This document shows positions 6,297 to 48,399 of a stretch of DNA of 64,000 bases, in pieces. A model generated the notes under the pieces. That model did not search any database, was not told where the DNA came from, and saw only the letters and a program-made list of their open reading frames with translations. A program made the translations under genes and the position numbers. The DNA is from Vampirovibrionales bacterium. Lineage in GTDB: Bacteria > Cyanobacteriota > Vampirovibrionia > Vampirovibrionales > JAJTHC01. The stretch covers positions 6,414 to 70,413 of the forward strand of contig CANGYO010000001.1 of assembly GCA_947458095.1 (NCBI GenBank), written 5' to 3'. Numbering within the stretch: the first letter of the stretch is position 1; every line of letters starts with the position of its first letter.

Positions 6297-7639
6297 AGCA
6301 CAAAATGCCCTTGCAATTTTTGGCTAAATTGCTTGAGATTTTGAAGGGTCACGGTGGCGTCTTTCACCACATTTTGAAGCACTTCCTTCGTAATCGGATT
6401 GGTTTTGTCATTCGTCACCTGATTCGCTTTCACGAGCAAGGTATTCAGCTCGCTTAAGGTGACTTCCATTTTCGTGGTGAGCGTTTCGGCTTCGAGCTTG
6501 GTTTTCGCCAAAGTCGCCACATTATTCACGTTGTCTAACGCCAAGTTGGCTTTTTTCAGTGTCTGCCCCAGTTCAGGCGAACTAATCAAGGCTTGAGCCT
6601 GCAAGACGGTTTGACGCAAATCGGTGATGAGTCCCTTGAAATCGTCTTTCAGCATAGGGTCGTTCACCAAAATGTTGATATTGTTCATCAAGCGGTTCAG
6701 CGATTTACTCAACGTCGCCACCGATTGCACCATGCTGTGAATGTCTTGTTTCAAGGTTTTGAGCAAGCTTTGTGTGGTCGAAACCAATTCCGTCGTTTGC
6801 CCAGAGAGCAATTTCACGTTTTCAATAATTTGTTGAATATGCACAATGGTTTCAGCATCCAACAGCGCATTGATTTTGTCGTTGGTTTCTTTCAACGCTT
6901 CAGCAGATGCGATCGACGCTTGCAAGAATTTTTTGAGTCGTAACGGCGTTTCCACCGTAAAATAAGTACCACTCGCAGGCAACGACTGAGGCGACCATTC
7001 CGCATCATACGAATCAATCCGCAAGGCAAGCCCCTCTTTAGAAGGCTTCATAAAGTAAAACGGCACTTCAGGCAATAAAATCCCTGGCCGTGTAATGCGA
7101 AAATACAGACGTTTACCCAAGTAAAACTTCTTTTTGTTCAACGGCGTTTCAGGAGGTGCCTGCAAGGCTTCCACCTTTTCAACCGTGCCAATATCCACCC
7201 AGCCTTCTTTCATGCGAAGCTCCAAGTTCCACGGCAAGGGATGCTTAGGCACATTATACGCCGTTTCCACATCCGTCCACTGTAGGTGAGGCGGTGTAAT
7301 CTCAAGGAGCTTTTCGCTAATCAAGCCCGATTGCTCAATCGACAACACCGACGCCTTGGGGATGGGATTGTCTTTGCTGGCGAGGCGAAACTGCACGTCG
7401 ACATCAAACTTGTTTTTGTCGAACTGCGGGATGATTTTTTCCACATAGCCGACTTGGGTTCCCATGAGTTGCACGGGTGCGCCTTCACGCAAACCGTCGA
7501 CATCGGGGAAGGAGACGCTATAGGCGAGGCCTTGTTGGAACTCACGGCTTTTGAGCCAATACACGGTGCCAAATAAAACGCCCAAGCTGAGCAAGGTGAA
7601 GAGTCCTACTTTAACGGCATTGCTTTTTGAAAAAGACAC
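6278..7639 (-). CDS. MlaD/MCE-family protein with a long C-terminal coiled coil
   Basis: The N-terminal TM helix and Mce domain (VKVGLFTLLSLGVLFGTVYWL...GLAYSVSFPDVDGLREGAPVQLMGTQVGYVEKI) are followed by an extended coiled-coil region. Confidence 0.65.
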   Translation of the reverse strand: MSFSKSNAVKVGLFTLLSLGVLFGTVYWLKSREFQQGLAYSVSFPDVDGLREGAPVQLMGTQVGYVEKIIPQFDKNKFDVDVQFRLASKDNPIPKASVLSIEQSGLISEKLLEITPPHLQWTDVETAYNVPKHPLPWNLELRMKEGWVDIGTVEKVEALQAPPETPLNKKKFYLGKRLYFRITRPGILLPEVPFYFMKPSKEGLALRIDSYDAEWSPQSLPASGTYFTVETPLRLKKFLQASIASAEALKETNDKINALLDAETIVHIQQIIENVKLLSGQTTELVSTTQSLLKTLKQDIHSMVQSVATLSKSLNRLMNNINILVNDPMLKDDFKGLITDLRQTVLQAQALISSPELGQTLKKANLALDNVNNVATLAKTKLEAETLTTKMEVTLSELNTLLVKANQVTNDKTNPITKEVLQNVVKDATVTLQNLKQFSQKLQGHFVLWKLAF

Positions 7640-7832
7640 GTCTAACGCTCCTTGTGGATGATTGTCTCTTATCTTACCTCAAAGAACGTTTTTGCACAAT
7701 TTTATTGTTTTGGGTGAACGTGGATTGTGGCTTGAAAGGCTTACGACTTTATGCTAGCCTAATGAAAACCTGAACTAAAAGGGTTGCTAATAAGCAACAC
7801 CCCCATTCTGTAACGAAAGGAGGTGAGGCAAA

Positions 7833-7895
7833 ATGGATCATATAGAACATCTTTCGATGTTACTAATTATCCTCCTTCTAGTGTGGAAACGTTAG
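7833..7895 (+). CDS. Candidate 20-aa hydrophobic peptide MDHIEHLSMLLIILLLVWKR (type I toxin-like small ORF)
   Basis: ATG lies 7 nt after AAAGGAGGTGA. The ORF frame and length are conserved across 4 of the 5 copies, and the C-terminal half is a single hydrophobic helix. Confidence 0.5.
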   Translation: MDHIEHLSMLLIILLLVWKR

Positions 7896-7954
7896 GAGGA
7901 TAGCTTTCAAAGGAGTTCTCAAGCCTCGCAAGCTTGGGGACTCCCCCTTTTTAT

Positions 7955-7983
7955 ATTGTGGCAAATGTCGTGAGCTTTGTCAA
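7955..7983 (-). promoter_or_regulatory. Convergent (antisense) sigma70-like promoter TTGACA-N17-CACAAT
   Basis: On the minus strand the sequence reads TTGACAaagctcacgacatttgcCACAAT. The hexamers and 17-nt spacing are conserved in all five copies while the spacer sequence differs. Confidence 0.55.
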
Positions 7984-8028
7984 GGGGGCGGTTCTATTCT
8001 TCCTCCTGATTTGGGGAGGGCAACCGCC

Positions 8029-9531
8029 TTAGCGTTTCACCTTATTGCGGATCGCCGCCCCAATTTGGAAGAGCAAGTACCCTTGAATGAGGTGTTGCAG
8101 GATGTACACGAGGTAAAACCGCTCCCCCATTTTAGTGGCGACGGTTTTAATAGCGTTTTGAATAGGTTCAACTTTATATAATATAAGTGGGAAGCTAGCA
8201 CTCAAACTAGTCCACAATGGATCCCAAAAACAATTGCCTCTATAGTAAAGAAACCCAAAACAGACCACTATGAAAAACCAAAGTAGCGGAAGCATTGCAC
8301 TTAGTCCATACGCTGATGTCCACAAGTAAAAGGTGTTCCAGCTAAACCATTTGTTTTGATAGAACTGATGCCAAAAGTGAAAGTCGTTAGACAATTGAGC
8401 ATCTCCTGCATCTAAGGCACTGACTTTTAAATAGCCGTAGGATTCTATTTTTTCGAGGGTGTCCGTGGTATTAAGTTTTTTAAAAGCTCGAAACTTTAGC
8501 CAAAACGGGAGAAACTTGAAACATTCAAGTGCTTTTTCAGAATCCCATTTGCAGAGGTAAAATCCCATGCCTGCGACGTAACTACCGCCTGTAATGGAAA
8601 CCTGTTGCATGGCAACCTTTGTAAAGACGACGTTTTTGCCGTAAAAGCCACATTCTTTAAAGTGAACCGTCACCTTTGATTCTTTTTTGAGATTACGCAC
8701 TTTAATACAGATACCACTACTATCCACTTCTATATTTTCAAATTGAACGTTGCCTGTACTTTCTTCTAAGCAATTTTCCAAGTCTACAACAAGCGAACGT
8801 TTATCTGACTCAAAACTCGTGTCTTTTATGATAATCTCGCCGTTTAATTCATTTGGTACAATTCCTAAATAATCGTGCGTGGTGGCGTGGTCAAAATTAA
8901 GTTGAGCATTTTCTAAAATTATTTCTTTAAAAGAAGTGTGCTTTTCGAAGGTGGTGTCTGCGAAATACGCTAAGCCTGAAAAGGAGGCCTTGTAAAAATC
9001 CGCCTTTCTTGAGAAGGTGGTGTTTATGAAATACGCTATGTCTGAAAAGGTGGCCCGCCAAAAATACGCATTACGTTTGAAGGCGGTGTTTGTGAAATCC
9101 GCTATGCCTGAAAAGGTGGTACACCTGAAATCCGCCCTTCTTGAGAAGTTGGTGTGTGTGAAATCCACCTCGCTTGTGAAGGTGGTGTTTGTGAAATACG
9201 CTATGCCTGAAAAGGTGGTGTGTGTGAAATACGCATTACGTGTGAAAATTGTTTTGGTTCCGAAATCACAAGCAATAAACTCTTTTTCAAAAGTGGCACT
9301 CTTGCTATTGAAGGTAAAAGGACATTCTAGGGTGTCCCAAATACCATCATCTGTTTCTATGGGCTTTTTTTCAATACCACACGCAAGTAACAATTCAGCC
9401 AAGTTAAAGTCTACTTTGACTTGGCAGTTTTCAAGGTCTAATACGCCTGAATCGAGGGCTTGACGTAACAGCTCTTCAAGGTCTTTTTTTGTGCTAATCA
9501 CACATTCAATTTGGCGTTCTTTGACGTTCAC
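8029..9531 (-). CDS. Pentapeptide-repeat protein with a C-terminal multi-TM domain
   Basis: Long tandem A(D/N)FxxTxF pentapeptide repeats (NAYFTHTTFSGIAYFTNTTFTSEVDFTHTNFSRRADFRCTTFSGIADF...) are followed by hydrophobic helices (MLPLLWFFIVVCFGFLYY...). Confidence 0.75.
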   Translation of the reverse strand: MNVKERQIECVISTKKDLEELLRQALDSGVLDLENCQVKVDFNLAELLLACGIEKKPIETDDGIWDTLECPFTFNSKSATFEKEFIACDFGTKTIFTRNAYFTHTTFSGIAYFTNTTFTSEVDFTHTNFSRRADFRCTTFSGIADFTNTAFKRNAYFWRATFSDIAYFINTTFSRKADFYKASFSGLAYFADTTFEKHTSFKEIILENAQLNFDHATTHDYLGIVPNELNGEIIIKDTSFESDKRSLVVDLENCLEESTGNVQFENIEVDSSGICIKVRNLKKESKVTVHFKECGFYGKNVVFTKVAMQQVSITGGSYVAGMGFYLCKWDSEKALECFKFLPFWLKFRAFKKLNTTDTLEKIESYGYLKVSALDAGDAQLSNDFHFWHQFYQNKWFSWNTFYLWTSAYGLSAMLPLLWFFIVVCFGFLYYRGNCFWDPLWTSLSASFPLILYKVEPIQNAIKTVATKMGERFYLVYILQHLIQGYLLFQIGAAIRNKVKR

Positions 9532-9600
9532 AGGGTCGTCCTTCTTGCGTTGGGGGTGGGTTTCCCCTAGTCTAGCATGAAAACGCTGTCCCTTGGTTCT

Positions 9601-9730
9601 GTCCCCCCTCCTAATTTTAGGAGGGGGTTAGGGGGCGGTTAAACCCTAGACTCCGTTTGTGGTTTAACCTCACCCTCGAACGTCCTTCAGACGTTCTCTT
9701 CCCTCTCCTAAAATTAGGAGAGGGGACAAG
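9601..9730. repeat. Composite palindromic element P1 (three nested hairpins), reverse complement of the 16679 element
   Basis: It contains cccccctcctaattttaggaggggg, ggttaaaccctagactccgtttgtggtttaacc, gaacgtccttcagacgttc and cccctctcctaaaattaggagagggg. Related copies are at 15140 and 16679. Confidence 0.8.
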
Positions 9731-9793
9731 AAAAAGCTGTAAGCCAATAATAAGAAACACCCCCATTCTGTAACAGAAAGGAGGTGAGCTAAA

Positions 9794-9856
9794 ATGGATA
9801 CTCGTGAAGGACTAATCTTCTTGATTATCTACCTATTAGTCTTAAAACTAAGCTAA
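9794..9856 (+). CDS. Candidate 20-aa hydrophobic peptide MDTREGLIFLIIYLLVLKLS
   Basis: It has the same RBS, frame and length as the other copies. The sequence is divergent but hydrophobicity is preserved. Confidence 0.45.
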   Translation: MDTREGLIFLIIYLLVLKLS

Positions 9857-9911
9857 TAGGCTAGCATGGAGTCTTCAAGTCTCGAACACTTGGGGACTCC
9901 CCCTTTTTTGT

Positions 9912-9940
9912 ATTGTGGCAAATCCCGCACACTTTGTCAA
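9912..9940 (-). promoter_or_regulatory. Convergent promoter TTGACA-N17-CACAAT (copy B)
   Basis: The minus strand reads TTGACAaagtgtgcgggatttgcCACAAT. Confidence 0.5.
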
Positions 9941-9954
9941 GGGGTTTGGCTTTA

Positions 9955-10057
9955 CTCCCTCCATTTTAAGGGGAGGGTTGGGGTGGGGAGTAATGTGTCA
10001 CGCTGGGTTTTCAAAATCCCCCCCTCTCCCTAGCCCTCTCCTCAAGGAGAGGGAACA
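9955..10057. repeat. Palindromic element P6 (a second sub-family; related copy at 50585)
   Basis: The sequence is ggctttactccctcc...ggggagggttggggtgggg...cccctctccctagccctctcctcaaggagagggaacaag. It shares its ends and core with 50585-50700. Confidence 0.65.
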
Positions 10058-10142
10058 AGACACAAAATCGCCCCTCTAGTCAAAAAATCGTGTTTTCAGT
10101 AAACTAAAGCTCTAAACCTAATAAAAAAGGACACCCCCACAA

Positions 10143-11744
10143 ATGAACACCCCCACTCGCTACGCCTTTATCTCCGTCTGGGACAAAACCCACATCGTCG
10201 AACTGGCCACCGCCTTGCAAGCCAAGTTCGGCTTTGGCCTCATCGCCACGGGTGGATCTCGTAAAACACTGGAAGAGGCTGGCTTAAACGTCGTGGATCT
10301 CTCCACCGTCACAGGCTTTGACGAAATCCTAGAAGGGCGGGTGAAAAGCCTTCACCCCACCGTGTTTGCGGGCATTCTCGCCAAGCGTGACAAGGCCGAT
10401 CACATGAAAGAGGTCACCTTTAAAATTGATGTCGTCGCCGTGAATTTGTATCCCTTTGAACTCGGTTTGGCTCAATCGCAAACGGCGGAAAGCCCCAACG
10501 CCATGGTGGAACTCATCGATATTGGTGGGTCTTCGCTCATTCGAGCCGCGGCGAAAAACCATGCAGATGTCGCCGTCGTGTCAAGTCCTGATCAATACGA
10601 AGCACTCATTGCCGATTTAACTGTGAACGGTGGGCAAACGTCGCTAGGCTTGCGTAAACGCCTCGCACTCGCTGCGTTTCAGCGGTCTTCGACCTATGAC
10701 AACGCCATTAGTGGCTGGTTGTCGAGCCAAATCCTCGCCGAAGCCTTGGGCGACAAGGCTGAAGCCCTCGAGTTCCCCACGACGATGAACCTGACCTTGC
10801 ACAACATTCAAAGCCTGCGTTATGGCGAAAATCCGCACCAAGCGGCGGCGTTATTTGCCATTCGTCCTGATGAAGTGGATTTTCACGTCTTGCACGGCAA
10901 GCCCTTGTCGTACAACAATATCGTGGATATGGAAGCGGCGTGGAACCTGATTTGCGAATTTGATGATGAGCCCGCGGCGGCGATTATCAAGCATAATCAG
11001 CCCTGTGGCGTGGCGGTTGGGGCGACTTTAGCCAAAGCGTACCAGCGTGCCTTGGATTGTGATCCGTTGTCTGCTTTTGGGGGCGTGGTCGTGCTAAACC
11101 GTGCGGTGGACGAATCTACCGCGAAAGCGATGGTGGATATTTTCACCGAAGTCATTCTCGCGCCGAGCTTTAGCGAAGAGGCTTTGGCGATTTTGCAAGC
11201 CAAGAAAAACCTACGTTTGGTCACTCGCCCATGGGTGACGCCTGAATCGGGCAAGCATCCTGCGGAAACCCGTGATGGTCTGTATTTAAAGCAGGTGAGT
11301 CCGAATTTGGTGTTGGTGCAAGAACAGCAGTTCGCCAAAGCTGAAGCGGTCATGGCCAAAGAGTTGAAGGTGATTTCCAAGAAAAAGCCCACCGAAGACC
11401 AGTTGAGGGATGCCGCCTTTGCGTGGAAAGTGGCGAAGCATTTGAAGTCCAACGCCATTGTCGTAGCCAAAGACGGTCAGGCGTGGGGGCTTTCAGGCGG
11501 TCAAACCAGTCGTGTCGGTGCGGTTGAGCAAGCCTTGGCTCAAGCCTGTGAAAACGCCAACGGAGCCGTTTTAGCGTCCGACGGCTTCTTCCCAGCGGTC
11601 GATAACATCCAGCTTGCGGCTCAAAACCGTGTGGCGTGTATCATTCAGCCCGCGGGTAGCATTAAGGATGCCGACGTGATTTCGGCGGTGAATCAATACG
11701 ATATCGCCATGTTAGCGACCTCCGTTCGAGAATTTCGCCATTAA
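10143..11744 (+). CDS. purH: Bifunctional AICAR transformylase / IMP cyclohydrolase
   Basis: The 533 aa ORF has a PurH-type N-terminus (RYAFISVWDKTHIVELATALQAKFGFGLIATGGSRKTLEEAGLNVVDLSTVTGFDEILEGRVKSLHPTVFAGILAKRD...NLYPFE...DIGGSSLIRAAAKNH). Confidence 0.9.
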   Translation: MNTPTRYAFISVWDKTHIVELATALQAKFGFGLIATGGSRKTLEEAGLNVVDLSTVTGFDEILEGRVKSLHPTVFAGILAKRDKADHMKEVTFKIDVVAVNLYPFELGLAQSQTAESPNAMVELIDIGGSSLIRAAAKNHADVAVVSSPDQYEALIADLTVNGGQTSLGLRKRLALAAFQRSSTYDNAISGWLSSQILAEALGDKAEALEFPTTMNLTLHNIQSLRYGENPHQAAALFAIRPDEVDFHVLHGKPLSYNNIVDMEAAWNLICEFDDEPAAAIIKHNQPCGVAVGATLAKAYQRALDCDPLSAFGGVVVLNRAVDESTAKAMVDIFTEVILAPSFSEEALAILQAKKNLRLVTRPWVTPESGKHPAETRDGLYLKQVSPNLVLVQEQQFAKAEAVMAKELKVISKKKPTEDQLRDAAFAWKVAKHLKSNAIVVAKDGQAWGLSGGQTSRVGAVEQALAQACENANGAVLASDGFFPAVDNIQLAAQNRVACIIQPAGSIKDADVISAVNQYDIAMLATSVREFRH

Positions 11745-11805
11745 CCTTCCCAAAGAGCAAAGCTCGTGTTGTATCTTCACGCTTTGACAATAAAAGGAGC
11801 TAGAA

Positions 11806-12630
11806 ATGTCTTTAAACACCCTGAAAATCGGCATTGTCGGCTTGGGCAATATGTCGGGGGCGATTCTGAAAGGCTTGTTGAAGGCAGGGGTTTTGCCTGA
11901 AAACGTTGTAGGCATTGCGTCTTCACCCGAACGAGCGACCTTGCGTCAAGCCGAATACGACGTAAGCTGTACCACACTTGAGCTTGGCAAAGAGGCCCTT
12001 TCACAGGTGGATCTGCTCCTTTTAGGCGTGAAACCCTTTGTGATGCCCGCTGTTTTAGCCGATTTAGAAGGCATCACGCTGAAGGCGGAGGCTGTGGTGG
12101 TGTCTGTCGCAGCGGGTACGACCTTGGCGACGATAGGTGAGTCCTTGCCGAATACGGCGATTGTGCGAGCCATGCCGAATACGCCAGCCCTTGTGGGACA
12201 AGGGTTTACGGCAATGGCTCCGAATGCGTATGTGGGGGATGCTCAAAAAACGCTGGTGGCATCGGTGTTTGAAGCGGTGGGTAAGGCGGTGTGGCTCGAA
12301 GAGGGGCAGATCAACGCCTTTACAGGGCTTTTTGGTAGCGGCCCTGCGTATGTGTTCTACATCATGGAAGCCTTGGTAGAAGCGGGTTTAGCCGAAGGAT
12401 TGCCCCCTGAATTGGTGGAAGCAGGCGTGCTTCAGCTGGTGAAAGGATCCGCCTTATTGCTGGAAACCCGTGCGACGACCGCATCTCAGCTAAAGGCGGA
12501 GGTCGTCACCCCTAACGGCACCACAGCGAAAGGCTTAGAGGCGTTGGCATCAGCGAAGGTGGATGTCGCCTTACAAGAGGCCGTCCATCAAGCGACACGT
12601 CGAGCAGAAGAGTTGTCGAAAAACGTGTAA
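11806..12630 (+). CDS. proC: Pyrroline-5-carboxylate reductase
   Basis: The 274 aa ORF has GIVGLGNMSGAIL, AMPNTPALVGQG, GSGPAYVFYIMEAL and VTPNGTTAKGL motifs. Confidence 0.85.
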   Translation: MSLNTLKIGIVGLGNMSGAILKGLLKAGVLPENVVGIASSPERATLRQAEYDVSCTTLELGKEALSQVDLLLLGVKPFVMPAVLADLEGITLKAEAVVVSVAAGTTLATIGESLPNTAIVRAMPNTPALVGQGFTAMAPNAYVGDAQKTLVASVFEAVGKAVWLEEGQINAFTGLFGSGPAYVFYIMEALVEAGLAEGLPPELVEAGVLQLVKGSALLLETRATTASQLKAEVVTPNGTTAKGLEALASAKVDVALQEAVHQATRRAEELSKNV

Positions 12631-12644
12631 AAAGGCGTTAATTT

Positions 12645-12756
12645 CCGACACACGAAAGTCGATTCTTGACACACGAAACCCTGTTTTCTGACACACGAAA
12701 CCCGCCTTTCTGACACACGAAACCCGCCTTTCTGACACACGAAACGACGCCTTTTT
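12645..12756. repeat. Tandem array of five 22-bp direct repeats (tgacacacgaaacccgcctttc)
   Basis: The units are ccgacacacgaaagtcgattct, tgacacacgaaaccctgttttc, tgacacacgaaacccgcctttc (x2, identical) and tgacacacgaaacgacgccttttt. The array is flanked by inverted aaaggcg/cgccttt and lies between convergent proC and the RHH-like gene. Confidence 0.85.
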
Positions 12757-12759
12757 CAT

Positions 12760-13191
12760 CTAGTGAGGGCCCTCCTCGCTTCGAAGCTCCCACAACTCCT
12801 TATGGGCTTCTTTCTTAAAGTAGTGCATAAACGCATGTTCAATCATATCACTAAACGATAGATGCAAGACCTTGGCTTCTCGTTCAAGGATTTTCTTGAA
12901 TTGAGGCGACACCCAAAGACCCATCCGCACCCGATCGCTTTTCGGACGCCCCACAATTTTCGGAGGCCTTTCATAGGTCTCTGAACGCTCCATCGCTTGG
13001 TCGGCTTCTTCCATCACCGCAAACCACGCTTCCAATTTGTCCATAAAATGCTCTTCTGATTCAGTGCGGGATCCGCCTGTGGTGGTGAAAAAGTTAAAAA
13101 GTGCATGCGACGTGACGAAGCAACCTCGTCGCATGTCGTAACGGGTGCGTAAGCCGATGCGAGGGTCGTCGTCTCCACGATAGAGTTTCAT
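12760..13191 (-). CDS. Hypothetical protein with a C-terminal ribbon-helix-helix-like DNA-binding motif
   Basis: The 143 aa ORF has a strong RBS (AAAGGAGA-N7-ATG). The C-terminal VRMGLWVSPQFKKILEREAKVLHLSFSDMIEHAF fits a beta-strand/helix/helix RHH pattern. The N-terminal 70 aa are unassigned. Confidence 0.4.
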   Translation of the reverse strand: MKLYRGDDDPRIGLRTRYDMRRGCFVTSHALFNFFTTTGGSRTESEEHFMDKLEAWFAVMEEADQAMERSETYERPPKIVGRPKSDRVRMGLWVSPQFKKILEREAKVLHLSFSDMIEHAFMHYFKKEAHKELWELRSEEGPH

Positions 13192-13235
13192 TTCGGGGTC
13201 TCCTTTGGTTTTTTTTGGGGGGGATGCCTTATGTT

Positions 13236-13260
13236 CCCCCTCCTAATTTTAGGAGAGGGG
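13236..13260. repeat. Single palindromic hairpin P2 (ccccctcctaattttaggagagggg)
   Basis: A perfect 9-bp stem, identical to the arms of the composite P elements. T8 and G7 homopolymer runs lie immediately adjacent. Confidence 0.7.
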
Positions 13261-13357
13261 ACACAGGCTACTATCCTAAGCATGACAACTATTTACGCCA
13301 TTGCATAGTGCGTAAAACCCACTATTTTCCACACGGCAATGTAACAATTTAAAACGC

Positions 13358-13419
13358 CGATCAAACATAGCAAAGATCAAGGGCTTGATCTTCACCTGAT
13401 CTGATCGTACGATCCGATC
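13358..13419. promoter_or_regulatory. Cluster of seven GATC sites, including the 12-bp palindrome GATCGTACGATC, about 65 nt upstream of the methyltransferase gene
   Basis: The sequence is cgccGATCaaacatagcaaaGATCaagggcttGATCttcacctGATCtGATCgtacGATCcGATCgcc, giving 7 GATC sites in 62 bp. Confidence 0.6.
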
Positions 13420-13483
13420 GCCTTATCAGAGGCGTTTTTTCGACACAGAAAGAATGTCCCTATAAAGCACGGAGTCCCCCACA

Positions 13484-14392
13484 ATGAAAAGCCCCGAAAC
13501 CCTCATGTTATTACACCAAGACGACACACTAAGCTTGCACTTAGGCGATGTGCTAGAAACCCTAGCCAGCTTGCCCCAAGAAAGTGTCGATCTTATTTTT
13601 GCCGACCCCCCCTACAACTTGAGCAACGACGGCTTTACCTGCCACGCAGGCAAACGAGTCAGCGTCAACAAAGGGGTGTGGGACAAAAGCAACGGCGTGC
13701 AAGCCGATTTCGATTTTCACCGTGCGTGGATTTCCGCCTGTTACCGAGTGCTAAAACCCAACGGTAGCCTATGGATTAGTGGCACCTACCATTCCATTTA
13801 CGCTTGCGGATTCGCCCTACAACTCGACGGCTGGCATGTGATTAACGATGTCGCATGGTTCAAGCCCAACGCCGCCCCGAACTTGAGTTGCCGTATGTTT
13901 ACCGCCAGCCATGAAACGCTGATTTGGGCGAGAAAAAGCAAAACCGCCAAGCACACGTTTAACTATGACTTGATGAAAAACGGCATGTGGCATGAAGACG
14001 ATTTCATTAAAAAGCCTGAAAAACAAATGCGAAGCGTGTGGGCAAGTGGCACGCCCAAACCCCACGAAAAAGCCTTTGGTAAGCACCCCACCCAAAAGCC
14101 CGAACTGCTGTTAAGACGCATTGTAATTGCCAGTAGCTTACAAGGTGACGTGGTGCTAGACCCCTTTTGTGGGAGCGGTACAACAGGCGTAGTCGCCTTA
14201 CAACACGGACGCAACTTCATTGGCATTGACCAAAACCGTGAGTATTTGGAAGGGATTGCCATTCGCCGTTTAAAACACATTCAAGAACAAGTGCAAGCGT
14301 GTATAATAAAGGAACAGTTAGAGTCCTTGTATGCACTGGATGCCTATATAGATGAGTCTTCAATTCAACTTAGCTTATGCGGAATCTTATAA
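13484..14392 (+). CDS. Beta-class N6-adenine/N4-cytosine DNA methyltransferase of the CcrM/M.HinfI/DpnA family
   Basis: Motif IV DPPY (VDLIFADPPYNL) precedes motif I (LDPFCGSGTTG). Conserved blocks AHETLIWARKSKTAKHTFNYD and HPTQKPELLLRRI match the CcrM/HinfI methylase family. Confidence 0.85.
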   Translation: MKSPETLMLLHQDDTLSLHLGDVLETLASLPQESVDLIFADPPYNLSNDGFTCHAGKRVSVNKGVWDKSNGVQADFDFHRAWISACYRVLKPNGSLWISGTYHSIYACGFALQLDGWHVINDVAWFKPNAAPNLSCRMFTASHETLIWARKSKTAKHTFNYDLMKNGMWHEDDFIKKPEKQMRSVWASGTPKPHEKAFGKHPTQKPELLLRRIVIASSLQGDVVLDPFCGSGTTGVVALQHGRNFIGIDQNREYLEGIAIRRLKHIQEQVQACIIKEQLESLYALDAYIDESSIQLSLCGIL

Positions 14393-15134
14393 TAGTGAAA
14401 CGCAACGTGTTAGACGTATGTCTGAAAAATGGCTGGTGGAAGAATCATATTGCCCTGCGTGTGGGGGACGTTTGGCGGAATATCCCAATAATAAACCTGT
14501 GCGAGATACGTATTGTGAAGATTGTGGTGAAAAATACGAGCTAAAATCTAAAAAAAGTAGTGAAAAAGGACTTTTAAAGCTTCCTGAAAAAATTGTGGAT
14601 GGGGCGTATGCCACGATGATGCAAGATATGGAAGCCCAAACGACTCCCAATTTATTATTTTTACAATACTTAAGTGGCTATACGGTGGCGTCTTTACTGG
14701 TGATTCCTAAGCAGTTTTTCGTGCCTGCTTTAATTGAAAAGCGTAACCCTTTATCCAAGACGGCACGACGTGCAGGCTGGGTGGGTTGTAATATCCTACT
14801 AGAACCCATTCCACAAGTGGGACGGATTCCCATTATTCAAAACAAAGTATTTGAACCGAAGGATAAGGTTATTTCTATTTTTCAGAAAACCTTATTTTTA
14901 CGACATCAACAAAAACTTGAAGCTAAAGGCTGGTTGCTGGATGTGATGCGGTGTGTGGAACTCATCGGCAAAGAAGAGTTTACGTTGCAAGATATTTATC
15001 AACATGAAGCGATGCTGAAAGACTTACATCCCGACAATAATAATGTGCAAGCGAAGATACGGCAACAATTGCAAGTCTTGCGAGACGCAGGCTTCTTGGC
15101 GTTTGTGGGTCGTGGGGTGTATCGGGTGGTGTAA
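14352..15134 (+). CDS. DpnI-like methyl-directed (G6mATC-type) restriction endonuclease; overlaps the methyltransferase by 41 nt
   Basis: The 260 aa ORF resembles DpnI along its length as recalled from memory: MSLQFNL...SYCPACGG...YCEDCGEKYELKSKK...DGAYATMMQ...ARRAGWVGCNI...EFTLQDIY...KIRQQLQVLRDAGFLAFVGRGVYRVV. DpnI has an N-terminal PD-(D/E)XK nuclease and a C-terminal winged helix. Confidence 0.8.
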   Translation: MSLQFNLAYAESYNSETQRVRRMSEKWLVEESYCPACGGRLAEYPNNKPVRDTYCEDCGEKYELKSKKSSEKGLLKLPEKIVDGAYATMMQDMEAQTTPNLLFLQYLSGYTVASLLVIPKQFFVPALIEKRNPLSKTARRAGWVGCNILLEPIPQVGRIPIIQNKVFEPKDKVISIFQKTLFLRHQQKLEAKGWLLDVMRCVELIGKEEFTLQDIYQHEAMLKDLHPDNNNVQAKIRQQLQVLRDAGFLAFVGRGVYRVV

Positions 15135-15139
15135 ATGCC

Positions 15140-15267
15140 GTCCCCTCTCCTAATTTTAGGAGAGGGAAGAGAACGTCTGAAAGACGTTCGAGGGGGAGCT
15201 TAGACTCACCACGGGCATCTAGGGTTTAACCGCCCCCTAACACCCTCCTAAAATCAGGAGGGGGGAC
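15140..15267. repeat. Composite palindromic element P3
   Basis: It contains gtcccctctcctaattttaggagaggg, gaacgtctgaaagacgttc, ...tagggtttaacc... and ccctcctaaaatcaggagggg. It has the same architecture as the elements at 9601 and 16679. Confidence 0.75.
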
Positions 15268-15286
15268 AAAGCCAATTGGGTTTCGT

Positions 15287-15360
15287 CATTGCGAGCGTAG
15301 CGTGGCAATCTGTCAAGACGTCGCAGGTGGGGGAACAGATTGCTTCGTTGCACTCGCAAT
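15287..15360. repeat. Long nested inverted repeat (cattgcgag...gcaatctgt-N22-acagattgc...ctcgcaat)
   Basis: Two nested perfect inverted repeats of 9 bp each enclose a G-rich loop. It is a possible structured RNA or protein-binding site. Confidence 0.5.
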
Positions 15361-15422
15361 AACGGTGTTTTTTATCACTTTGCGTAGAGTCTCCTCAAGG
15401 AGAGGGAACAGAGCCGAAGCAC

Positions 15423-15451
15423 TTGACAAAGCGTGCAACATTTGACACAAT
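15423..15451 (+). promoter_or_regulatory. Convergent promoter TTGACA-N17-CACAAT (copy C, plus strand because the module is inverted)
   Basis: The plus strand reads TTGACAaagcgtgcaacatttgaCACAAT. Confidence 0.5.
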
Positions 15452-15507
15452 ATAAAAAGGGAGAGTCCCCAAGTCGGTAAACTTGAGAACTCTTTTTCGC
15501 TATCCTC

Positions 15508-15570
15508 CTAGAGTTTTGTCACTAGAAGGAGGATAATTAACAGCGACATAAGTTTCTGAAGTTCATCCAT
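15508..15570 (-). CDS. Candidate 20-aa hydrophobic peptide MDELQKLMSLLIILLLVTKL
   Basis: It has the same RBS spacing, length and C-terminal LLIILLLVTKL as copies A and E. Confidence 0.5.
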   Translation of the reverse strand: MDELQKLMSLLIILLLVTKL

Positions 15571-15711
15571 TTTAGCTCACCTCCTTTCTGTTACAGAACG
15601 GGGGTGTTGCTTATTAGCAACCCTTTAAAGGTTTTTATTAGACTAGCACAAAGCCTTAGCAGGTTCAAGCCAGATACGGCAACAATGGCAAGTCTTGCTT
15701 GAATCCGCCTG

Positions 15712-16668
15712 ATGCTTTTTTGTGAAAGGATGCCCTCTTTGATTCCACGCACCGACATCCAAAAACAGCTCAACGACGTGGGCATTACGCAGTGGGGCGT
15801 TCTCACCACCGATGCCCTCAAAAACGAAGCCCAACGCCTGACGGCGTGGCTGGAGGCTGGGCATCACGCCGACATGGACTGGATGCCTCGTCACGCCGAA
15901 AAACGGGTGTCTCCGTCTGATTTGTGGGAAGGCGTGCAAAGTGTCGTGGTGGTGGCCGTCAACTACTTCCCTGGTTGGGAAGCAGGGCAAGGCGACGATC
16001 TGAAAATCGCTCGCTACGCCCTAGGCAAGGACTATCACAAGGTGATTCGTCGTAAGCTTGGCAAGGTTTTAAAGGCGTTACAGGCGGAACATGAGGGCTT
16101 AGAGGGTCGTCCCTTTGTGGATTCGGCGCCTTTGCTTGAAAAGGCGTTAGCCGTTCAAGCAGGCTTGGGCTGGCAAGGCAAGCATAGTCTTTTAATCACG
16201 AAAGAAGCAGGGTCATGGGTGATGCTTGGGGCGTTGTTCCTCAATCAAGCCGTTGATGCCTATACCAGTCCCCACGAAAACACGCTGGAATCGGGGCATT
16301 GTGGGACCTGTACGCGGTGCATCACGGCTTGCCCCACGGAGGCGATCGTCTCGCCCACGGTCGTCGACAGCCGTCGGTGCATCGCCTATTGGACGATTGA
16401 AAATGGAGATGATGCTTTGCCTGATTTTATCCAAGACAACCAGCAGGATTGGGGCTTTGGATGCGACATTTGCCAAGATGTCTGCCCATGGAACCTGAAG
16501 TTTTCTAACGTGACTGAGGAGCCTGCCTTTGCCCCTCGGGCGGTGTTGGCACATCCGAATCGGGCGTATTTTCAGAGTTTGAGTGAAGCCGCTTTTGCTC
16601 AAGCCTTTGAAAATAGTCCCTTGCGTCGCACGGGCTTGAGGCGGATCCAGCGGAATATCATGCTTTAG
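15712..16668 (+). CDS. queG: Epoxyqueuosine reductase
   Basis: The 318 aa ORF has a QueG-type layout with a C-terminal 4Fe-4S ferredoxin motif (CGTCTRCITACPT) and a second Cys cluster (CDICQDVCPWN). The start may be the downstream ATG at 15730. Confidence 0.75.
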   Translation: MLFCERMPSLIPRTDIQKQLNDVGITQWGVLTTDALKNEAQRLTAWLEAGHHADMDWMPRHAEKRVSPSDLWEGVQSVVVVAVNYFPGWEAGQGDDLKIARYALGKDYHKVIRRKLGKVLKALQAEHEGLEGRPFVDSAPLLEKALAVQAGLGWQGKHSLLITKEAGSWVMLGALFLNQAVDAYTSPHENTLESGHCGTCTRCITACPTEAIVSPTVVDSRRCIAYWTIENGDDALPDFIQDNQQDWGFGCDICQDVCPWNLKFSNVTEEPAFAPRAVLAHPNRAYFQSLSEAAFAQAFENSPLRRTGLRRIQRNIML

Positions 16669-16678
16669 AGAATCGCCT

Positions 16679-16808
16679 TGTCCCCTCTCCTAATTTTAGG
16701 AGAGGGAAGAGAACGTCGTTAGACGTTCGAGGGTGAGGTTAAACCTTAGACTCCGTTTGTGGGTTTAACCGCCCCCTAGCCCCCTCCTAAAATTAGGAGG
16801 GGGGACAA
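16679..16808. repeat. Composite palindromic element P5
   Basis: It contains gtcccctctcctaattttaggagaggg, gaacgtcgttagacgttc, ggttaaaccttagactccgtttgtgggtttaacc and ccctcctaaaattaggagggggg. It is the reverse complement of P1. Confidence 0.8.
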
Positions 16809-16880
16809 AACAAAAGCTACATTTGGATATTTCCCATAAAAGCTAAACACCCCCAATCTAATAGAAAGGAGGTGAGCTAA

Positions 16881-16955
16881 ATGGATAATAGTCAACAAGT
16901 GTTGATTTTAATGATTATCCTCCTTCTAGCGACAAAAACTAGGAGGATAGCATAA
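16881..16955 (+). CDS. Candidate 24-aa peptide MDNSQQVLILMIILLLATKTRRIA (a 1-nt indel extends the C-terminus)
   Basis: It uses the same RBS and frame as the other copies. A single-base difference relative to copy E removes the usual TAG and extends the ORF by 4 codons. Confidence 0.4.
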   Translation: MDNSQQVLILMIILLLATKTRRIA

Positions 16956-16998
16956 AGGAGTTCTCAAGCTTTTACGCTTGGGGACTCCCCCTTTTTAT

Positions 16999-17027
16999 AT
17001 TGTGGCAAATGTAGAAGCCTTTGTCAA
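16999..17027 (-). promoter_or_regulatory. Convergent promoter TTGACA-N17-CACAAT (copy D)
   Basis: The minus strand reads TTGACAaaggcttctacatttgcCACAAT. Confidence 0.5.
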
Positions 17028-17170
17028 GAGGGCGGCTGGTTTATAGTACCCCTGTTTGTAGACCTTGTTTATACTTGAAAGCCTTGCGATTTTATGCTAG
17101 CTTATAAAAAACCTTAAAAGGGTTGCTAATAAGCAACACCCCCAATCTAACAGAAAGGAGGTGAAGCAAA

Positions 17171-17233
17171 ATGGATCATATAGAACATCTTTCGATGTTA
17201 CTAATTATCCTCCTTCTAGTGACGAAACTCTAG
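17171..17233 (+). CDS. Candidate 20-aa hydrophobic peptide MDHIEHLSMLLIILLLVTKL
   Basis: ATG lies 7 nt after AAAGGAGGTGA. The 3' end of the ORF sits inside the anti-SD-containing hairpin. Confidence 0.5.
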   Translation: MDHIEHLSMLLIILLLVTKL

Positions 17234-17289
17234 GAGGATAGCTGAACGGAGTTCTCAAGCTTTTACGCTTGGGGACTCCCCCTTTTTAT

Positions 17290-17318
17290 ATTGTGGCAAA
17301 TGTAGAAGCTTTTGTCAA
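17290..17318 (-). promoter_or_regulatory. Convergent promoter TTGACA-N17-CACAAT (copy E)
   Basis: The minus strand reads TTGACAaaagcttctacatttgcCACAAT. Confidence 0.5.
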
Positions 17319-17433
17319 GATCTCGCCATCAATTACACATCATGCAAAAACTGTATTTTTAAGCTCACACGTTAAAAATCCGTTGAAACGTTTCTATAAT
17401 AGTAGGCATCACTAAAATGAGGAAGCCCCTGCT

Positions 17434-18777
17434 ATGTCCACCAATACTATTAGCCCTCCCAGAACCGAAACCGTAAGCCCACGAGGCATCCCCTTACTAG
17501 AAAACGTCCCCACGTCACTAGACGCCTTGGCAGACTATATTTATAGCCACGCCCCCAAACTCACCCAAAAACAGCAAGTGCTTTTGGTGGAAGGCGGTTC
17601 GCAATACGGCGCCTTAAATCAATTCACCCAAAACCTCAACGAAGCCTTTCGCTTACGAGGTCACGCCACCGCACAGCTTAACCTGCATGACAATCCCCAC
17701 GCCAACCAAGAACTCGACGGCATTCTTAAGAACTTTAAACCCAGTATGCTATTTAGCCTTAATGCCATCCATGAAGCGGTCGAATTAAGCAACCGAAAGA
17801 CGCTTGGGCAACATCTCAAAGTGCCTAGCCTGTCGTGGTTTGCGGATCACCCCTTGATTCAGTGGCCTCGTATCGTTGAGGTGGACTATCCTGAAAAAAT
17901 AAATGCTCATTTTGCGATTGAAGGCTTTCGAAATACCCAGCATCGTGTGGTGAAGCATCCGCTTAAAGCCTTTAATACGACGCTTCCCGGTGTAGGCTTT
18001 CCGTCCTTTGAAACGCAAAAACCGTTTAAAGAACGGACGATTTCACTTTTGGTGCCGTGTAGCTTTACCCCCTTTCAAGAAAAGCTAGAATCGCTCAAAT
18101 TCCCCAAATTTCCTGCCTTTGAAGCCCTTTGCAAAGAAGCGATCGACTACCTCATCGCATCACCTGAACATCCTGCCGATACCTTCTTGCTCGACGGGCT
18201 AGAACGCCTTGGTGTGGATCCTAAGGCGGTTCACCCTTATCAGTATCCCCGCCTCATGGCGTGGATCAATCACAGTGCGGAAATGTACTGGCGAGAAAAC
18301 TTTTTAAGACAAGCGAAAAACATTCCGCTGACCTTGTGCGGTAATGGCTGGGAAAAGGCCTCCTTTTTGTCGGACAAATGGACGCTATTGGCGCCGCCTA
18401 AAACGGGGACATCCGTGGCGTTGTATGGCGACACTCAAGCCGTTTGGCACATTTTCCCGATGTATCCTGAAAGTGGGCATGACCGCATTGATAACGCTAC
18501 GGCGAATGGAACCAATCTCATCACGGAGCCGAAAGAATGGCTCCAAGGCTATTACGGCAAGGCGTTGCAGTATATCGCTCAAGATTTATCGACGGTGGAA
18601 GAAACCTTGCAAAGCTATTTGAACGCTCCGCTAGCCGAGCGTGAGGCTCAAGCGAATTATGCCCAGCGTTTTACCTTAACGAACCGCACCTTCTTCAATA
18701 GTGTGATTGATATTGAAGATATTTTGGAGCGTTTTGCCTTGCGTCAAGCCTTGAGCGAGTATCCGAAAAGTGATTAG
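17434..18777 (+). CDS. Hypothetical protein, possibly a CgeB-family (Glyco_trans_1_2-like) glycosyltransferase
   Basis: In this 447 aa ORF the only recognisable motif is near the C-terminus (DRIDNATANGTNLITEPKE, reminiscent of the CgeB-type R.FE..a.G..l.te motif). Confidence 0.3.
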   Translation: MSTNTISPPRTETVSPRGIPLLENVPTSLDALADYIYSHAPKLTQKQQVLLVEGGSQYGALNQFTQNLNEAFRLRGHATAQLNLHDNPHANQELDGILKNFKPSMLFSLNAIHEAVELSNRKTLGQHLKVPSLSWFADHPLIQWPRIVEVDYPEKINAHFAIEGFRNTQHRVVKHPLKAFNTTLPGVGFPSFETQKPFKERTISLLVPCSFTPFQEKLESLKFPKFPAFEALCKEAIDYLIASPEHPADTFLLDGLERLGVDPKAVHPYQYPRLMAWINHSAEMYWRENFLRQAKNIPLTLCGNGWEKASFLSDKWTLLAPPKTGTSVALYGDTQAVWHIFPMYPESGHDRIDNATANGTNLITEPKEWLQGYYGKALQYIAQDLSTVEETLQSYLNAPLAEREAQANYAQRFTLTNRTFFNSVIDIEDILERFALRQALSEYPKSD

Positions 18778-47919: not shown

Positions 47920-48399
47920 ATGGCGTCTCTATTGCTGGTGGTGTTAGGAGCCTCTGTACTGACAGGTGTCACGAACGTTACAGGCGTTTTGGGTATTTTA
48001 TGCGTCGAGTTTTTTGAGATGGAAGACGGCAACTTGCTGGTGAACGAACTTGCCCCACGTCCGCATAATTCGGGGCATTTCACGATCGAAGCCTGCCATG
48101 TGAGCCAGTATCAGCAACAAGTGAACGCCTTAACAGGCATGCCCTTGGGCAATGCAGAAATGCACGTTAAAGCCGTGGGATTGATGAACTTGTTGAGCAA
48201 TCGTTGGAGTAAGAAGGGGGATTCCCCAAATTGGCAGGAGTTGTTGTCTCGTTACCCTCGTTTGAGTGTGCATTTGTATGGCAAGAAGGAGTTGCGTCCT
48301 AACCGTAAAATGGGGCATATTACGTTGACGAAAAAGGATACGGCTATGGTGGAATCGGCGTTTGACGAAATTAACGCCATGCTCACCACTTACGATTAA
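47920..48399 (+). pseudogene. purK: 5'-truncated remnant of N5-carboxyaminoimidazole ribonucleotide synthase (only the C-terminal ~150 aa)
   Basis: GILCVEFFEMEDGNLLVNELAPRPHNSGHFTIEACHVSQYQQQVNALTGMPLG...KMGHITL matches the PurK ATP-grasp C-terminal half. The N-terminal ~200 aa are absent. It starts 27 nt after the valS stop. Confidence 0.55.

Follow-up and report, generated by a model that had tools for sequence, protein, structure and literature searches.

A recurrent feature of the 64-kb window (the whole stretch of DNA analysed here) is a repeat module of ~205 nt, present in five copies within 10 kb, each with a promoter-like sequence at one end that is antisense to a small gene. This raises the question as to whether these sequences are promoters kept by selection and, if so, what they serve. 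The first-pass annotation stated that the two hexamers and their 17-nt spacing are identical in the five copies, and this is borne out: TTGACA-N17-CACAAT has five exact matches in the window against 0.02 expected, a number reached in none of 100 shuffles, and all five are confined to the five modules. The five spacer strings quoted in that annotation are also exact. A consensus scan of positions 7500–17600 returned the five antisense sites as the top five promoter-like sites, each with 10/12 hexamer matches, a 17-nt spacer and a TG ahead of the second hexamer. On the minus strand these are the sites of module 1 (7955–7983; TTGACA at 7983–7978, a 17-nt spacer, extended -10 TGc, CACAAT at 7960–7955 and a predicted start at ~7948), module 2 (9912–9940, again with TGc), module 4 (16999–17027) and module 5 (17290–17318), for which the predicted start is the A at 17283, where the complement of the T-run in the small-gene terminator begins. 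Module 3 is inverted and has its antisense promoter on the plus strand (15423–15451), where a TGa creates a second TTGACA overlapping the -10. Copies 4 and 5 differ at only two spacer bases, so that the window holds about four independent spacers.

We base the conservation analysis on 32 copies (26 distinct promoter strings), comprising the five in the window and 27 from nine species-level Vampirovibrionales-type genome bins (related uncultured bacteria) and one metagenome contig. The additional copies were sought with nhmmer and anchored on the ribosome-binding site and start codon, which lie 130 nt from the promoter and outside it. TTGACA, which matches the -35 consensus at 6/6 positions, is present in all 32 copies, and CACAAT in 31, the lone variant (CAGAAT) being altered at a non-consensus position. 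CACAAT shares 4/6 positions with TATAAT, and A2, A4, A5 and T6 are invariant in 32/32. The hexamers are 17 nt apart in every copy, with no indels, and the extended -10 TG is likewise universal; the base that follows it is free (A in 16, C in 14, T in 2), as are the two discriminator bases 3' of the -10. Nine central spacer columns carry at least 22 changes vs. a single change in the 12 hexamer columns (tree-free binomial P = 1.1e-7), the corresponding Fitch steps are 80 and 1, and comparison with the module-wide rate gives P = 8e-11, all of these being counts over copies that are related and recombining and thus not independent samples. The evidence for recombination at the promoter is that otherwise divergent modules have spacer variants in common. 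Hexamers mutating as often as the spacer would have spoken against the first-pass annotation, and this per-position comparison finds the opposite. Its description of the spacer as freely variable holds for the middle 9 nt and for the base between TG and -10; about half of the spacer is fixed, since positions 1–2 (AA) and 12–16 (ATTTG) do not change in the window or in any of the 32 copies, and 8 of the 17 spacer bases match the hexamers in conservation.

The promoter is thus under selective constraint. The contacts of sigma-70 are the -35, a TG with a free next base, the A at -11 and the T at -7. The fixed hexamers and TG, together with the free spacer core and discriminator, coincide with this map, and the sites combine a -35, a -10 with A2 and T6, a spacer within 17 ± 1 bp, an extended -10 and constraint on the contact bases. 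That 27 further copies from related bacteria keep the bases read by polymerase while those in between drift makes this very probably a working antisense promoter. On these sequence grounds the five sites are best described as a real, selected sigma-70-type antisense promoter, and the earlier claim of purifying selection on a sigma70-type promoter is supported. As in textbook extended -10 promoters, TTGACA, the 17-bp spacer, TGn and a -10 are all present and conserved; the differences are the -10, which is CACAAT with invariant C residues at -12 and -10, and the eight fixed spacer bases. A simple model in which the promoter is merely kept working does not require the two invariant, non-consensus C residues. 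C at -12, C at -10, A7, A8 and A18–T21 are invariant without a sigma-70 need; something else also constrains this stretch.

What the promoter would transcribe is suggested by its position. Homology between modules stops 1–4 nt upstream of the -35, and each antisense promoter lies just beyond the terminator of the small gene and points back across it. This gene consists of a strong ribosome-binding site and a hydrophobic reading frame of 19–24 codons. In module 1 the frame (7833–7895, plus strand) encodes MDHIEHLSMLLIILLLVWKR, 20 aa plus stop, with the ribosome-binding site GAAAGGAGGTGA at 7815–7826. Its counterparts are MDTREGLIFLIIYLLVLKLS in module 2 (9794–9856, plus; ribosome-binding site 9776–9787), MDELQKLMSLLIILLLVTKL in module 3 (15508–15570, minus; 15577–15588), the 24-aa MDNSQQVLILMIILLLATKTRRIA in module 4 (16881–16955, plus; 16864–16875) and MDHIEHLSMLLIILLLVTKL in module 5 (17171–17233, plus; 17153–17164). 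The peptides have a polar N-terminus, about 11–12 hydrophobic residues, which is short for a membrane-spanning helix, and a C-terminal lysine. A coding signature is evident at the sequence level: the ribosome-binding site and ATG are invariant among copies, frame length is kept at 19–24 codons via compensating in-frame indels, and variation by codon position is 3 > 1 > 2 in both peptide subfamilies (17/13/7 and 10/7/3). The peptides are absent from 15 billion predicted proteins, no gene caller having recorded the family, and Pfam and NCBIfam gave no family at E up to 10, including such profiles as the two databases have for the named type I toxin families (Hok, Ldr/Fst, TisB, ShoB, TxpA, SymE and others); 20-aa queries give profile searches little power, so that only close membership of these families is excluded. 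Below threshold, a weak likeness to MgtR, a small membrane regulator, was also seen.

Putative promoters for the small ORF are found in modules 1 (7732–7760, plus; TTGAAA, 17 nt ending TTTATGc, TAGCCT), 3 (15640–15668, minus; TTGAAC, 17 nt ending TTTGTGc, TAGTCT) and 5 (17075–17103, plus; TTGAAA, 17 nt ending TTTATGc, TAGCTT), and modules 2 and 4 have a palindromic repeat in place of this element. Downstream of the frame, module 1 has an intrinsic terminator (7912–7952, plus) with a 13-bp stem followed by CCCTTTTT, which ends 2 nt before the antisense -10; the equivalent terminators are at 9868–9909 (plus), 15454–15493 (minus), 16957–16996 (plus) and 17248–17287 (plus) in modules 2–5. At the other end of module 1, a 5' hairpin (7781–7809, plus; GGGTTGC..GCAAC(A)CCC) precedes a CACCCCC that can pair with the ribosome-binding site; in its minus-strand form the hairpin runs into TTTT and may terminate the antisense RNA. 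Module 5 has a similar hairpin and anti-ribosome-binding-site stretch (17120–17146, plus), again a candidate antisense terminator on the minus strand. RNA helices are indicated by the alignment: in the internal hairpin and terminator, 42 cells are changed on both sides, a number reached in none of 500 shuffles, and the terminator has 49 U.G cells, all of them specific to the sense strand. Compared with shuffles, folding is far better for both strands (z = -7.0 and -5.3). Single-sequence and alignment folds both predict an occluded ribosome-binding site; the CACCCCC pairing helix never varies, and covariation therefore cannot support this pairing. The candidate antisense terminator is weak (5–7 bp stem, 3–4 U) and is missing in modules 2 and 4, in L005 and in L032:3727-3919, all of which keep perfect antisense promoters.

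Together, these data lead us to propose, with a probability of roughly 0.7, that each TTGACA-17-(TGn)CACAAT is a functional extended -10 sigma-70-type promoter and the outermost element of a multi-copy module of the Vampirovibrionales (non-photosynthetic relatives of cyanobacteria), antisense to a small gene in a type I-like arrangement. The sense unit would be driven by a weaker promoter (TTGAAn, 17 nt, TRTGn, TAnnnT), both promoter activity and relative strength being judged from sequence, and would consist in order of the 5' hairpin, CACCCCC, the ribosome-binding site GGAGGTG, the 19–24 codon ORF, the internal hairpin and the strong intrinsic terminator. The antisense transcript would start where the complement of the terminator T-run begins, at its first A, and cross the whole small gene; in this direction the terminator stem has A.C mismatches and no U-tract, and should thus be read through. 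The transcript may end at the 5' hairpin, whose reverse complement is followed by UUUU. The two RNAs would be complementary over almost their whole length; for module 5 the predicted antisense RNA (17106–17283, minus; ~178 nt, with its 5' end inferred from the -10 and its 3' end uncertain) is complementary to the whole small-ORF transcript. Abundant antisense RNA may then pair with the small-ORF mRNA and cause a translation block or cleavage, like type I Ibs/Sib. Transcript ends, repression by RNA pairing and peptide toxicity are all predictions.

The modules also behave in genomes much as type I loci do. Tandem pairs or triplets are seen in L032, L034, L042 and L016, the syntenic L034 lacks module 4, and a hybrid copy is present in L005, so that tandem copies, gain or loss between close relatives and hybrid copies are all observed. 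Tandem organisation and gain or loss between relatives are known of type I loci and are matched by the modules (PMC2887945). Solo truncated pieces of the promoter region are also found at module junctions. Of the features that define a type I system, the modules have a gene for a hydrophobic peptide of <60 aa with sequence signs of translation, and a selected promoter on the opposite strand from which an antisense RNA, with its ends and abundance, may be inferred; multi-copy or tandem occurrence with lineage-specific gain and loss, which is frequent in such systems and not obligatory, is also seen. We found no published description of the module family in the literature, and Rfam gave no match to the module RNA at gathering score and noise only at E up to 10. 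The modules probably represent an undescribed toxin-antitoxin-like family.

The layout matches that of type I toxin-antitoxin loci, with Ibs/Sib of the Escherichia coli QUAD/SIB repeats being closest. Both have very short hydrophobic peptides missed by gene callers (19–24 aa in the modules and 18–19 aa in Ibs) and an antisense RNA, predicted in the modules, that lies directly opposite and covers the whole reading frame. Ibs/Sib loci also occur, like the modules, as several chromosomal copies, some in tandem in one intergenic region, with numbers that vary between relatives (PMC2887945). Unlike in Ibs/Sib, each terminator hairpin of the module sits just outside the promoter of the other unit, which gives an end-to-end nesting of the two; the host belongs to a different phylum, and for the modules toxicity and repression are predictions. 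Membership of the Ibs/Sib family was rejected, as there is no sequence relationship: the peptides hit nothing in Pfam or NCBIfam, and Rfam gave no Sib/QUAD match. The par system (Fst/RNA II of Enterococcus pAD1) and TxpA/RatA and BsrG/SR4 of Bacillus subtilis have convergent toxin and antitoxin genes, a shared or overlapped terminator region and a highly structured toxin mRNA (reviews PMC6563280, PMC8309996), all as predicted for the modules. Their RNAs overlap at the 3' ends only, with short direct repeats near the 5' end also used in par, and their toxins have 33–59 aa; in the modules the antisense promoter lies beyond the small-gene terminator and the predicted overlap is complete. AapA/IsoA of Helicobacter pylori and hok/Sok are also multi-copy chromosomal loci, with a primary toxin mRNA whose translation is prevented by pairing of its 5' and 3' ends and by an occluded ribosome-binding site, both of which are predicted for the modules. 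Their antitoxin promoter is strong and constitutive, as that of the modules would be. They differ in that their antisense RNA covers the 5' region and their mRNA must be processed at the 3' end to become active, of which the module sequences show no sign; the peptides are unrelated. Within the cyanobacterial phylum, the only type I candidate reported is MsoT1/MsoA1 of Microcystis aeruginosa, where a cis-encoded antisense RNA of 56–83 nt covers the 3' part of the toxin gene (PMC12390103); MsoT1, a protein of 63 aa predicted to form two helices, has no sequence relationship to the 20-aa peptides of the non-photosynthetic Vampirovibrionales.

Could the promoter be real and the peptide harmless? 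The small ORF might encode a membrane or regulatory peptide tuned by cis-antisense RNA, in modules spread by ordinary duplication and not by addiction or selfishness. The short hydrophobic core and the weak resemblance to MgtR would fit, as would the location of all modules in chromosomal housekeeping surroundings, with none on plasmids or phages among the copies examined. However, Ibs toxins are equally short, and the modules combine features that form the signature used to find type I toxins (PMC2887945), namely multi-copy and tandem occurrence, rapid gain or loss between close relatives, a strong antisense and a weaker sense promoter as judged from sequence, and a highly structured mRNA with a predicted occluded ribosome-binding site. 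We consider a harmless peptide unlikely, giving it about one chance in four.

A second possibility, somewhat less probable still, adds to the promoter reading and speaks to the invariant bases beyond the sigma-70 contacts. An imperfect inverted repeat, TGACAAA-N10-TTTGnCA, extends across the -35 and the start of the -10, and a dimeric regulator bound there would make antisense transcription regulated instead of constitutive. The repeat is found with at least 6/7 matches in 31 of 32 copies, and an operator would explain why A7, A8, T19–T21 and the non-consensus C at -12 do not vary. Against this, 4/7 arm positions are already fixed by the -35 and TG, which could make the repeat in part a by-product; on the right arm, the central base is free (A/C/T) where a strict palindrome wants T; the 10 nt between the arms are without dyad symmetry; no regulator gene is linked to the modules; and the T-rich stretch upstream of TG also occurs in the module's other promoter as TTTRTG, which resembles the TRTG motif of Gram-positive promoters.

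It is improbable that the hexamers are kept for a reason other than initiation, whether as the end sequence by which a mobile or recombining unit is recognised or as part of a read-through small-ORF RNA. Such a role would account for the end of module homology at the -35, the spacer variants shared by divergent modules and the truncated solo pieces, but fixed and free positions match the sigma-70 contacts base for base, and no transposase, integrase or target duplication is associated with the modules. As to an RNA role, little sense RNA should extend into the region past the strong terminator (13-bp stem and U-run), and an RNA hairpin formed from the inverted repeat would be mismatched in half of the copies. 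Least probable of all is a promoter that serves a neighbouring protein-coding gene through a long leader, with incidental overlap of the small ORF: modules 1, 2 and 3 of the five in the window do have, in the antisense direction, a co-directional gene within 85–212 nt (MlaD-like, pentapeptide-repeat and QueG-like), but among the 28 copies whose neighbour could be read, about half have a next gene running with the promoter and about half one running against it, the neighbours are unrelated to one another and in tandem arrays the next element is another module, an even split that points to the module itself as the promoter's target.

Returning to the antisense-promoter reading, a further and tentative proposal, to which we give slightly less than an even chance, is that the modules form an unrecognised type I toxin-antitoxin family, the first for the Vampirovibrionales (Melainabacteria-type), with nested overlapping units and an antisense promoter that acts as an exchangeable cassette. 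No other part of the module, the terminator loop included, changes as fast as the 9-nt spacer core. Frozen contacts combined with shared, fast-changing spacers hint at recombination in short patches, or at selection that tunes the promoter of each copy separately, perhaps with control by a regulator bound to TGACAAA-N10-TTTGnCA.

As a promoter, the finding is a clean example of textbook behaviour and no surprise. To our knowledge, the Vampirovibrionales have almost no cultured members and no promoter mapping, and the analysis provides for them a base-by-base picture derived from selection (-35 TTGACA, 17-bp spacer, TGn, A-11/T-7) that can seed promoter prediction in their genomes. It also exposes a family of 20-amino-acid genes unrecorded by gene callers. 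Type I systems have been described as confined to Proteobacteria, Firmicutes and Tenericutes plus the one Microcystis candidate (PMC12390103); if the peptides are toxic, type I toxin-antitoxin systems would be known from a wider range of bacteria.

The antisense promoter is one element of a module of about 205 nt, which repeat finding and alignment recover in five copies (modules 1–5) in the window. Modules 1, 3 and 5 start with a promoter-like element, the putative sense promoter (TTGAAn-17-TAnnnT, with TTTRTGn before the -10), followed by a 5' hairpin (GGGTTGC..GCAAC(A)CCC); a palindromic repeat takes the place of both in modules 2 and 4. Downstream lie the motif CACCCCC, an invariant ribosome-binding site (GAAAGGAGGTGA), a small ORF with an ATG start and 20–24 codons in the window modules (for example, peptides MDHIEHLSMLLIILLLVWKR and MDTREGLIFLIIYLLVLKLS), an internal hairpin, and an intrinsic terminator with a 13-bp stem followed by CCCTTTTT. 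The antisense promoter is on the opposite strand and begins 2 nt past the terminator T-run. Similarity between modules ends 1–4 nt upstream of its -35, and the antisense promoter is therefore the outermost element of the module, aimed back into it. The pattern TTGACA-N17-CACAAT has exactly five matches in the 64-kb window, against 0.02 expected from dinucleotide-preserving shuffles: 7955–7983 (module 1, minus strand), 9912–9940 (module 2, minus), 15423–15451 (module 3, plus), 16999–17027 (module 4, minus) and 17290–17318 (module 5, minus). The five identical hexamer pairs 17 nt apart described in the first-pass annotation are thus all present, and the five differing spacers are the same as those quoted there. 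Each site has 10 of 12 hexamer matches to consensus, a 17-nt spacer and a TG one base 5' of the second hexamer, and in a generic consensus scan of 7500–17600 the five outrank every other promoter-like site.

Further copies were sampled without reference to the promoter, using a pattern of ribosome-binding site plus start codon, some 130 nt away from it, in 185,579 species-representative genomes, and then running nhmmer over the fetched loci. This yielded 27 additional modules whose promoter region could be read. Their sources are eight bins assigned to Vampirovibrionales or Vampirovibrio, a ninth that carries the label Gammaproteobacteria (JBEISK01), and a single metagenome contig. Two JBEISK01 contigs (L016 and L092) carry three typical modules; their label probably reflects mislabelling, contamination or a binning error, not horizontal transfer. 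A metagenome scan with a 5'-UTR/ribosome-binding-site anchor returned just a single full copy (contig L107), along with a cut pseudogene (L112) and a distant cousin (L110). A scan of viral contigs gave a single, unrelated match, and blastn of module 5 against plasmid and phage collections gave none. The window is syntenic with three related loci (L034, L005 and L087) at 88–95 % identity, and a glycosyltransferase look-up led to a metagenome contig (L115) identical to it; the host is therefore a freshwater Vampirovibrionales organism.

Across the resulting 32 copies, which comprise 26 distinct strings from -35 to -10, TTGACA is present at all six positions in every copy, the spacing is always 17 with no indels, the extended -10 TG is universal, and CACAAT occurs in 31 of 32, the exception being CAGAAT in L087. 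The base between TG and the -10 is free (A16/C14/T2), as are the two bases 3' of the -10. Fitch parsimony on a neighbour-joining tree built from the rest of the module assigns 1 step to the 12 hexamer columns, 80 to the nine columns of the spacer core (the central nine spacer bases) and 12 to the free base after TG. These steps cannot be taken as event counts, since recombination in the promoter region inflates them, and because this region recombines between modules we also give a lower bound that needs no tree, counting for each column one fewer than its number of states. By this measure there are at least 22 changes in the spacer core versus 1 in the hexamers (binomial P = 1.1e-7; whole spacer versus hexamers, P = 1.1e-5; against the module-wide rate, P = 8e-11). 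Sigma-70 contacts the -35, the TG, A-11 and T-7, and does not read the base after TG, the discriminator or the middle of the spacer. Read in this light, the fixed and free positions are those that sigma-70 would and would not contact. The alternative -10 hexamers ACAATA, CAATAT and TATAAA can be ruled out, as their key positions fall on the variable columns 30–31. Comparing hexamers and spacer in other copies had been proposed as the check on purifying selection at a sigma-70-type promoter, and the outcome supports that reading.

The variation of the spacer is less free than first claimed. Positions 3–11 do vary (0.6–1.9 bits each), but AA at positions 1–2 and ATTTG at 12–16 are invariant or nearly so, which leaves about half of the spacer free. 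Spacer bases A7, A8 and A18–T21 are invariant across the 32 copies, as are the non-consensus C at -12 and, apart from L087, the C at -10. An imperfect inverted repeat, TGACAAA-N10-TTTGnCA, is found in 31 of 32 copies, extending over the -35 and as far as the second base of the -10 (window 7978–7955 and equivalents); it would account for most of the invariant extras (A7, A8, T19–T21 and the C at -12). This repeat could serve as an operator, or it could simply follow from the -35 and TG motifs. Half of the copies carry A at the free position behind TG, giving a second perfect TTGACA that overlaps the -10 (TTTGACACAAT), 20 nt 3' of the real -35 (window 15423–15451, and also in L034, L097, L042, L032, L049, L095 and others).

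The small ORF bears a coding signature, as judged from its pattern of substitution. For the two main peptide subfamilies, the minimum changes at codon positions 1/2/3 come to 13/7/17 and 7/3/10 (3 > 1 > 2), many changes are synonymous, and amino-acid replacements are conservative and hydrophobic. Length stays within 19–24 codons, in-frame indels between subfamilies compensating one another. The encoded product could still be a harmless peptide instead of a toxin. The sense promoter keeps TTGAA, TTT, TG and the T, A and T of the -10, with three variable middle -10 bases (the regex used in this comparison forced TG and TA...T, and the module alignment concurs), and its match to consensus is poorer than that of the antisense promoter. 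A weaker sense and a stronger antisense promoter, as these matches would imply, is the usual arrangement of type I toxin-antitoxin loci. Some ORFs are broken: in L112:2091–2218 an internal deletion leaves MEQ* and the contig ends before the promoter, and in L063:1–186 a 1-nt deletion gives a 16-aa product beside an antisense promoter that is still perfect. One complete module is accompanied, 1.7 kb away and on the opposite strand, by a half module (L082:4273–4389, 5' part only, HMM positions 2–109). The distant cousin (L110:130–290, metagenome contig Ga0196970_1011758) repeats the layout: it has CAACACCCCC, the ribosome-binding site of the family and a terminator, and its hydrophobic ORF encodes 19 aa (MENIVGILTLIIVIYIISR). 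On its opposite strand is an extended -10 (TGaTAGATT) with no recognisable -35, which suggests a wider superfamily with a differently built antisense promoter.

At the RNA level, the internal hairpin and terminator show compensatory changes in 42 cells changed on both sides, a value reached by 0 of 500 shuffles, with slid controls far below it. The terminator contains 49 U.G cells on the sense strand that would be A.C mismatches if read antisense; it would therefore end the small-ORF transcript, and antisense transcription should read through it. Single-sequence folds of the predicted module 5 RNAs are both far more stable than shuffles (-65.4 kcal/mol, z = -7.0; -61.7 kcal/mol, z = -5.3). In the predicted sense fold the ribosome-binding site pairs with CACCCCC and the 5' AAAAGGG with the 3' CCCUUUU; because both helices are invariant, covariation cannot test them. 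The antisense RNA is predicted to start at the A complementing the first T of the terminator T-run (17283 in module 5), with corresponding starts near 7948 in module 1 and 15458 in module 3; sense starts are predicted near 17110, 7767 and 15633 in modules 5, 1 and 3. The candidate end of the antisense RNA is a weak terminator, the 5' hairpin read in reverse complement with UUUU after it. Four modules, those without the 5' part, do not have this candidate. The two predicted RNAs would share about 175 nt of complementarity, with each unit ending just short of the other's promoter. An antisense-strand peptide was rejected, there being no conserved pair of ribosome-binding site and start, as was a partial terminator-like match at 48211–48229, inside ordinary coding sequence.

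The spacer core also turns over rapidly. Where the bodies of two modules are identical to 97 % or more, their spacer cores differ at 22 % of positions, their terminator loops at 11 % and their hexamers at none; the 9-nt spacer core is the fastest-diverging part of the module (e.g. window 7961–7977 versus L034:7094–7302). Identical spacers, such as AAGCTCACGACATTTG, recur in modules that belong to three peptide subfamilies and come from five sources, which makes the promoter end mosaic; it looks as if exchanged between copies by short-patch recombination. One could then suppose that the site has a role other than that of a promoter, as a recombination end or as an element of a read-through RNA, but this leaves the base-for-base match to the sigma-70 contacts unexplained, and we favour a selected promoter. 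At some module junctions, solo remnants of the antisense promoter adjoin the small-ORF promoter of another module (L097:6283–6311, L107:856–884, L049:2757–2785, L032:2910–2938 and L016 at about 1340–1400). They combine a changed -35 (ATGACA) and a truncated or destroyed -10 (CACTCG, CACAGA, TAGAGA) with an intact spacer, the reverse of the pattern in intact copies. We rejected them as an independent natural control, as they are probably one lineage of truncated tandem junctions, cut inside the -10.

That the antisense promoter serves a neighbouring gene is unlikely: the first gene downstream of it runs the same way in roughly half of the copies and against it in the rest, and the flanking genes are unrelated housekeeping genes. 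Modules sit at indel boundaries relative to L034 and L005 (window 8029–9531, 13208–15710 and 16655–17073). Missing in L034 are the pentapeptide-repeat gene between modules 1 and 2, the DNA methylase and DpnI-like gene pair (13484–15134) together with module 3, and module 4; L005 has a single hybrid module, module 4-like in its 5' part and module 5-like in its 3' part. Palindromic intergenic repeats with the core CCCTCTCCTAAttTTAGGAGAGGG (9601–9638, 9698–9735, 13233–13270, 15140–15177, 16680–16717 and 16777–16814) often come in pairs spaced by about 97 nt and joined by a conserved linker, and the same type flanks modules in related loci. Two other repeats lie nearby: three and a half tandem 22-nt units of TGACACACGAAACCC(g/t)(c/t)(c/t)TTTC at 12667–12745, intergenic, after a ProC-like gene, and a 33/66-nt periodicity at 8948–9246 within the pentapeptide-repeat ORF (8029–9531, minus strand), presumably the protein's own repeats.

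In architecture, as read from the sequence, the module is that of a type I toxin-antitoxin locus. The closest known system is Ibs/Sib of E. coli, in which the Ibs peptide has 18–19 aa. Both combine a tiny peptide with a fully overlapping antisense RNA (predicted here). Both also occur in several copies, some of them in tandem, as reported for Ibs/Sib (PMC2887945). In contrast to Ibs/Sib, the module peptides and RNA have no Pfam, NCBIfam or Rfam match: the five small-ORF peptides hit no family in Pfam and NCBIfam at E up to 10, apart from a sub-threshold MgtR match, and Rfam gave only noise, for the whole window at the gathering score and for 16700–17400 at E up to 10. By these searches, which have little power for 20-aa queries, the module family is a close member of neither Ibs/Sib nor any other named family. 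None of eight small-ORF peptides occurs in a collection of 15 billion proteins by exact look-up. According to a 2025 paper, the known type I systems are confined to Proteobacteria, Firmicutes and Tenericutes, and the same paper proposes one candidate of 63 aa in Microcystis (PMC12390103), which is unrelated to the module peptides. Our literature search found no paper linking Vampirovibrio to toxin-antitoxin loci or antisense RNAs. Taken together, the site reads as a selected sigma-70-type extended -10 promoter, predicted to be antisense to a gene for a tiny hydrophobic peptide. The promoter logic itself is textbook, and the modules represent by all these features an undescribed type-I-toxin-antitoxin-like repeat family of Vampirovibrionales.
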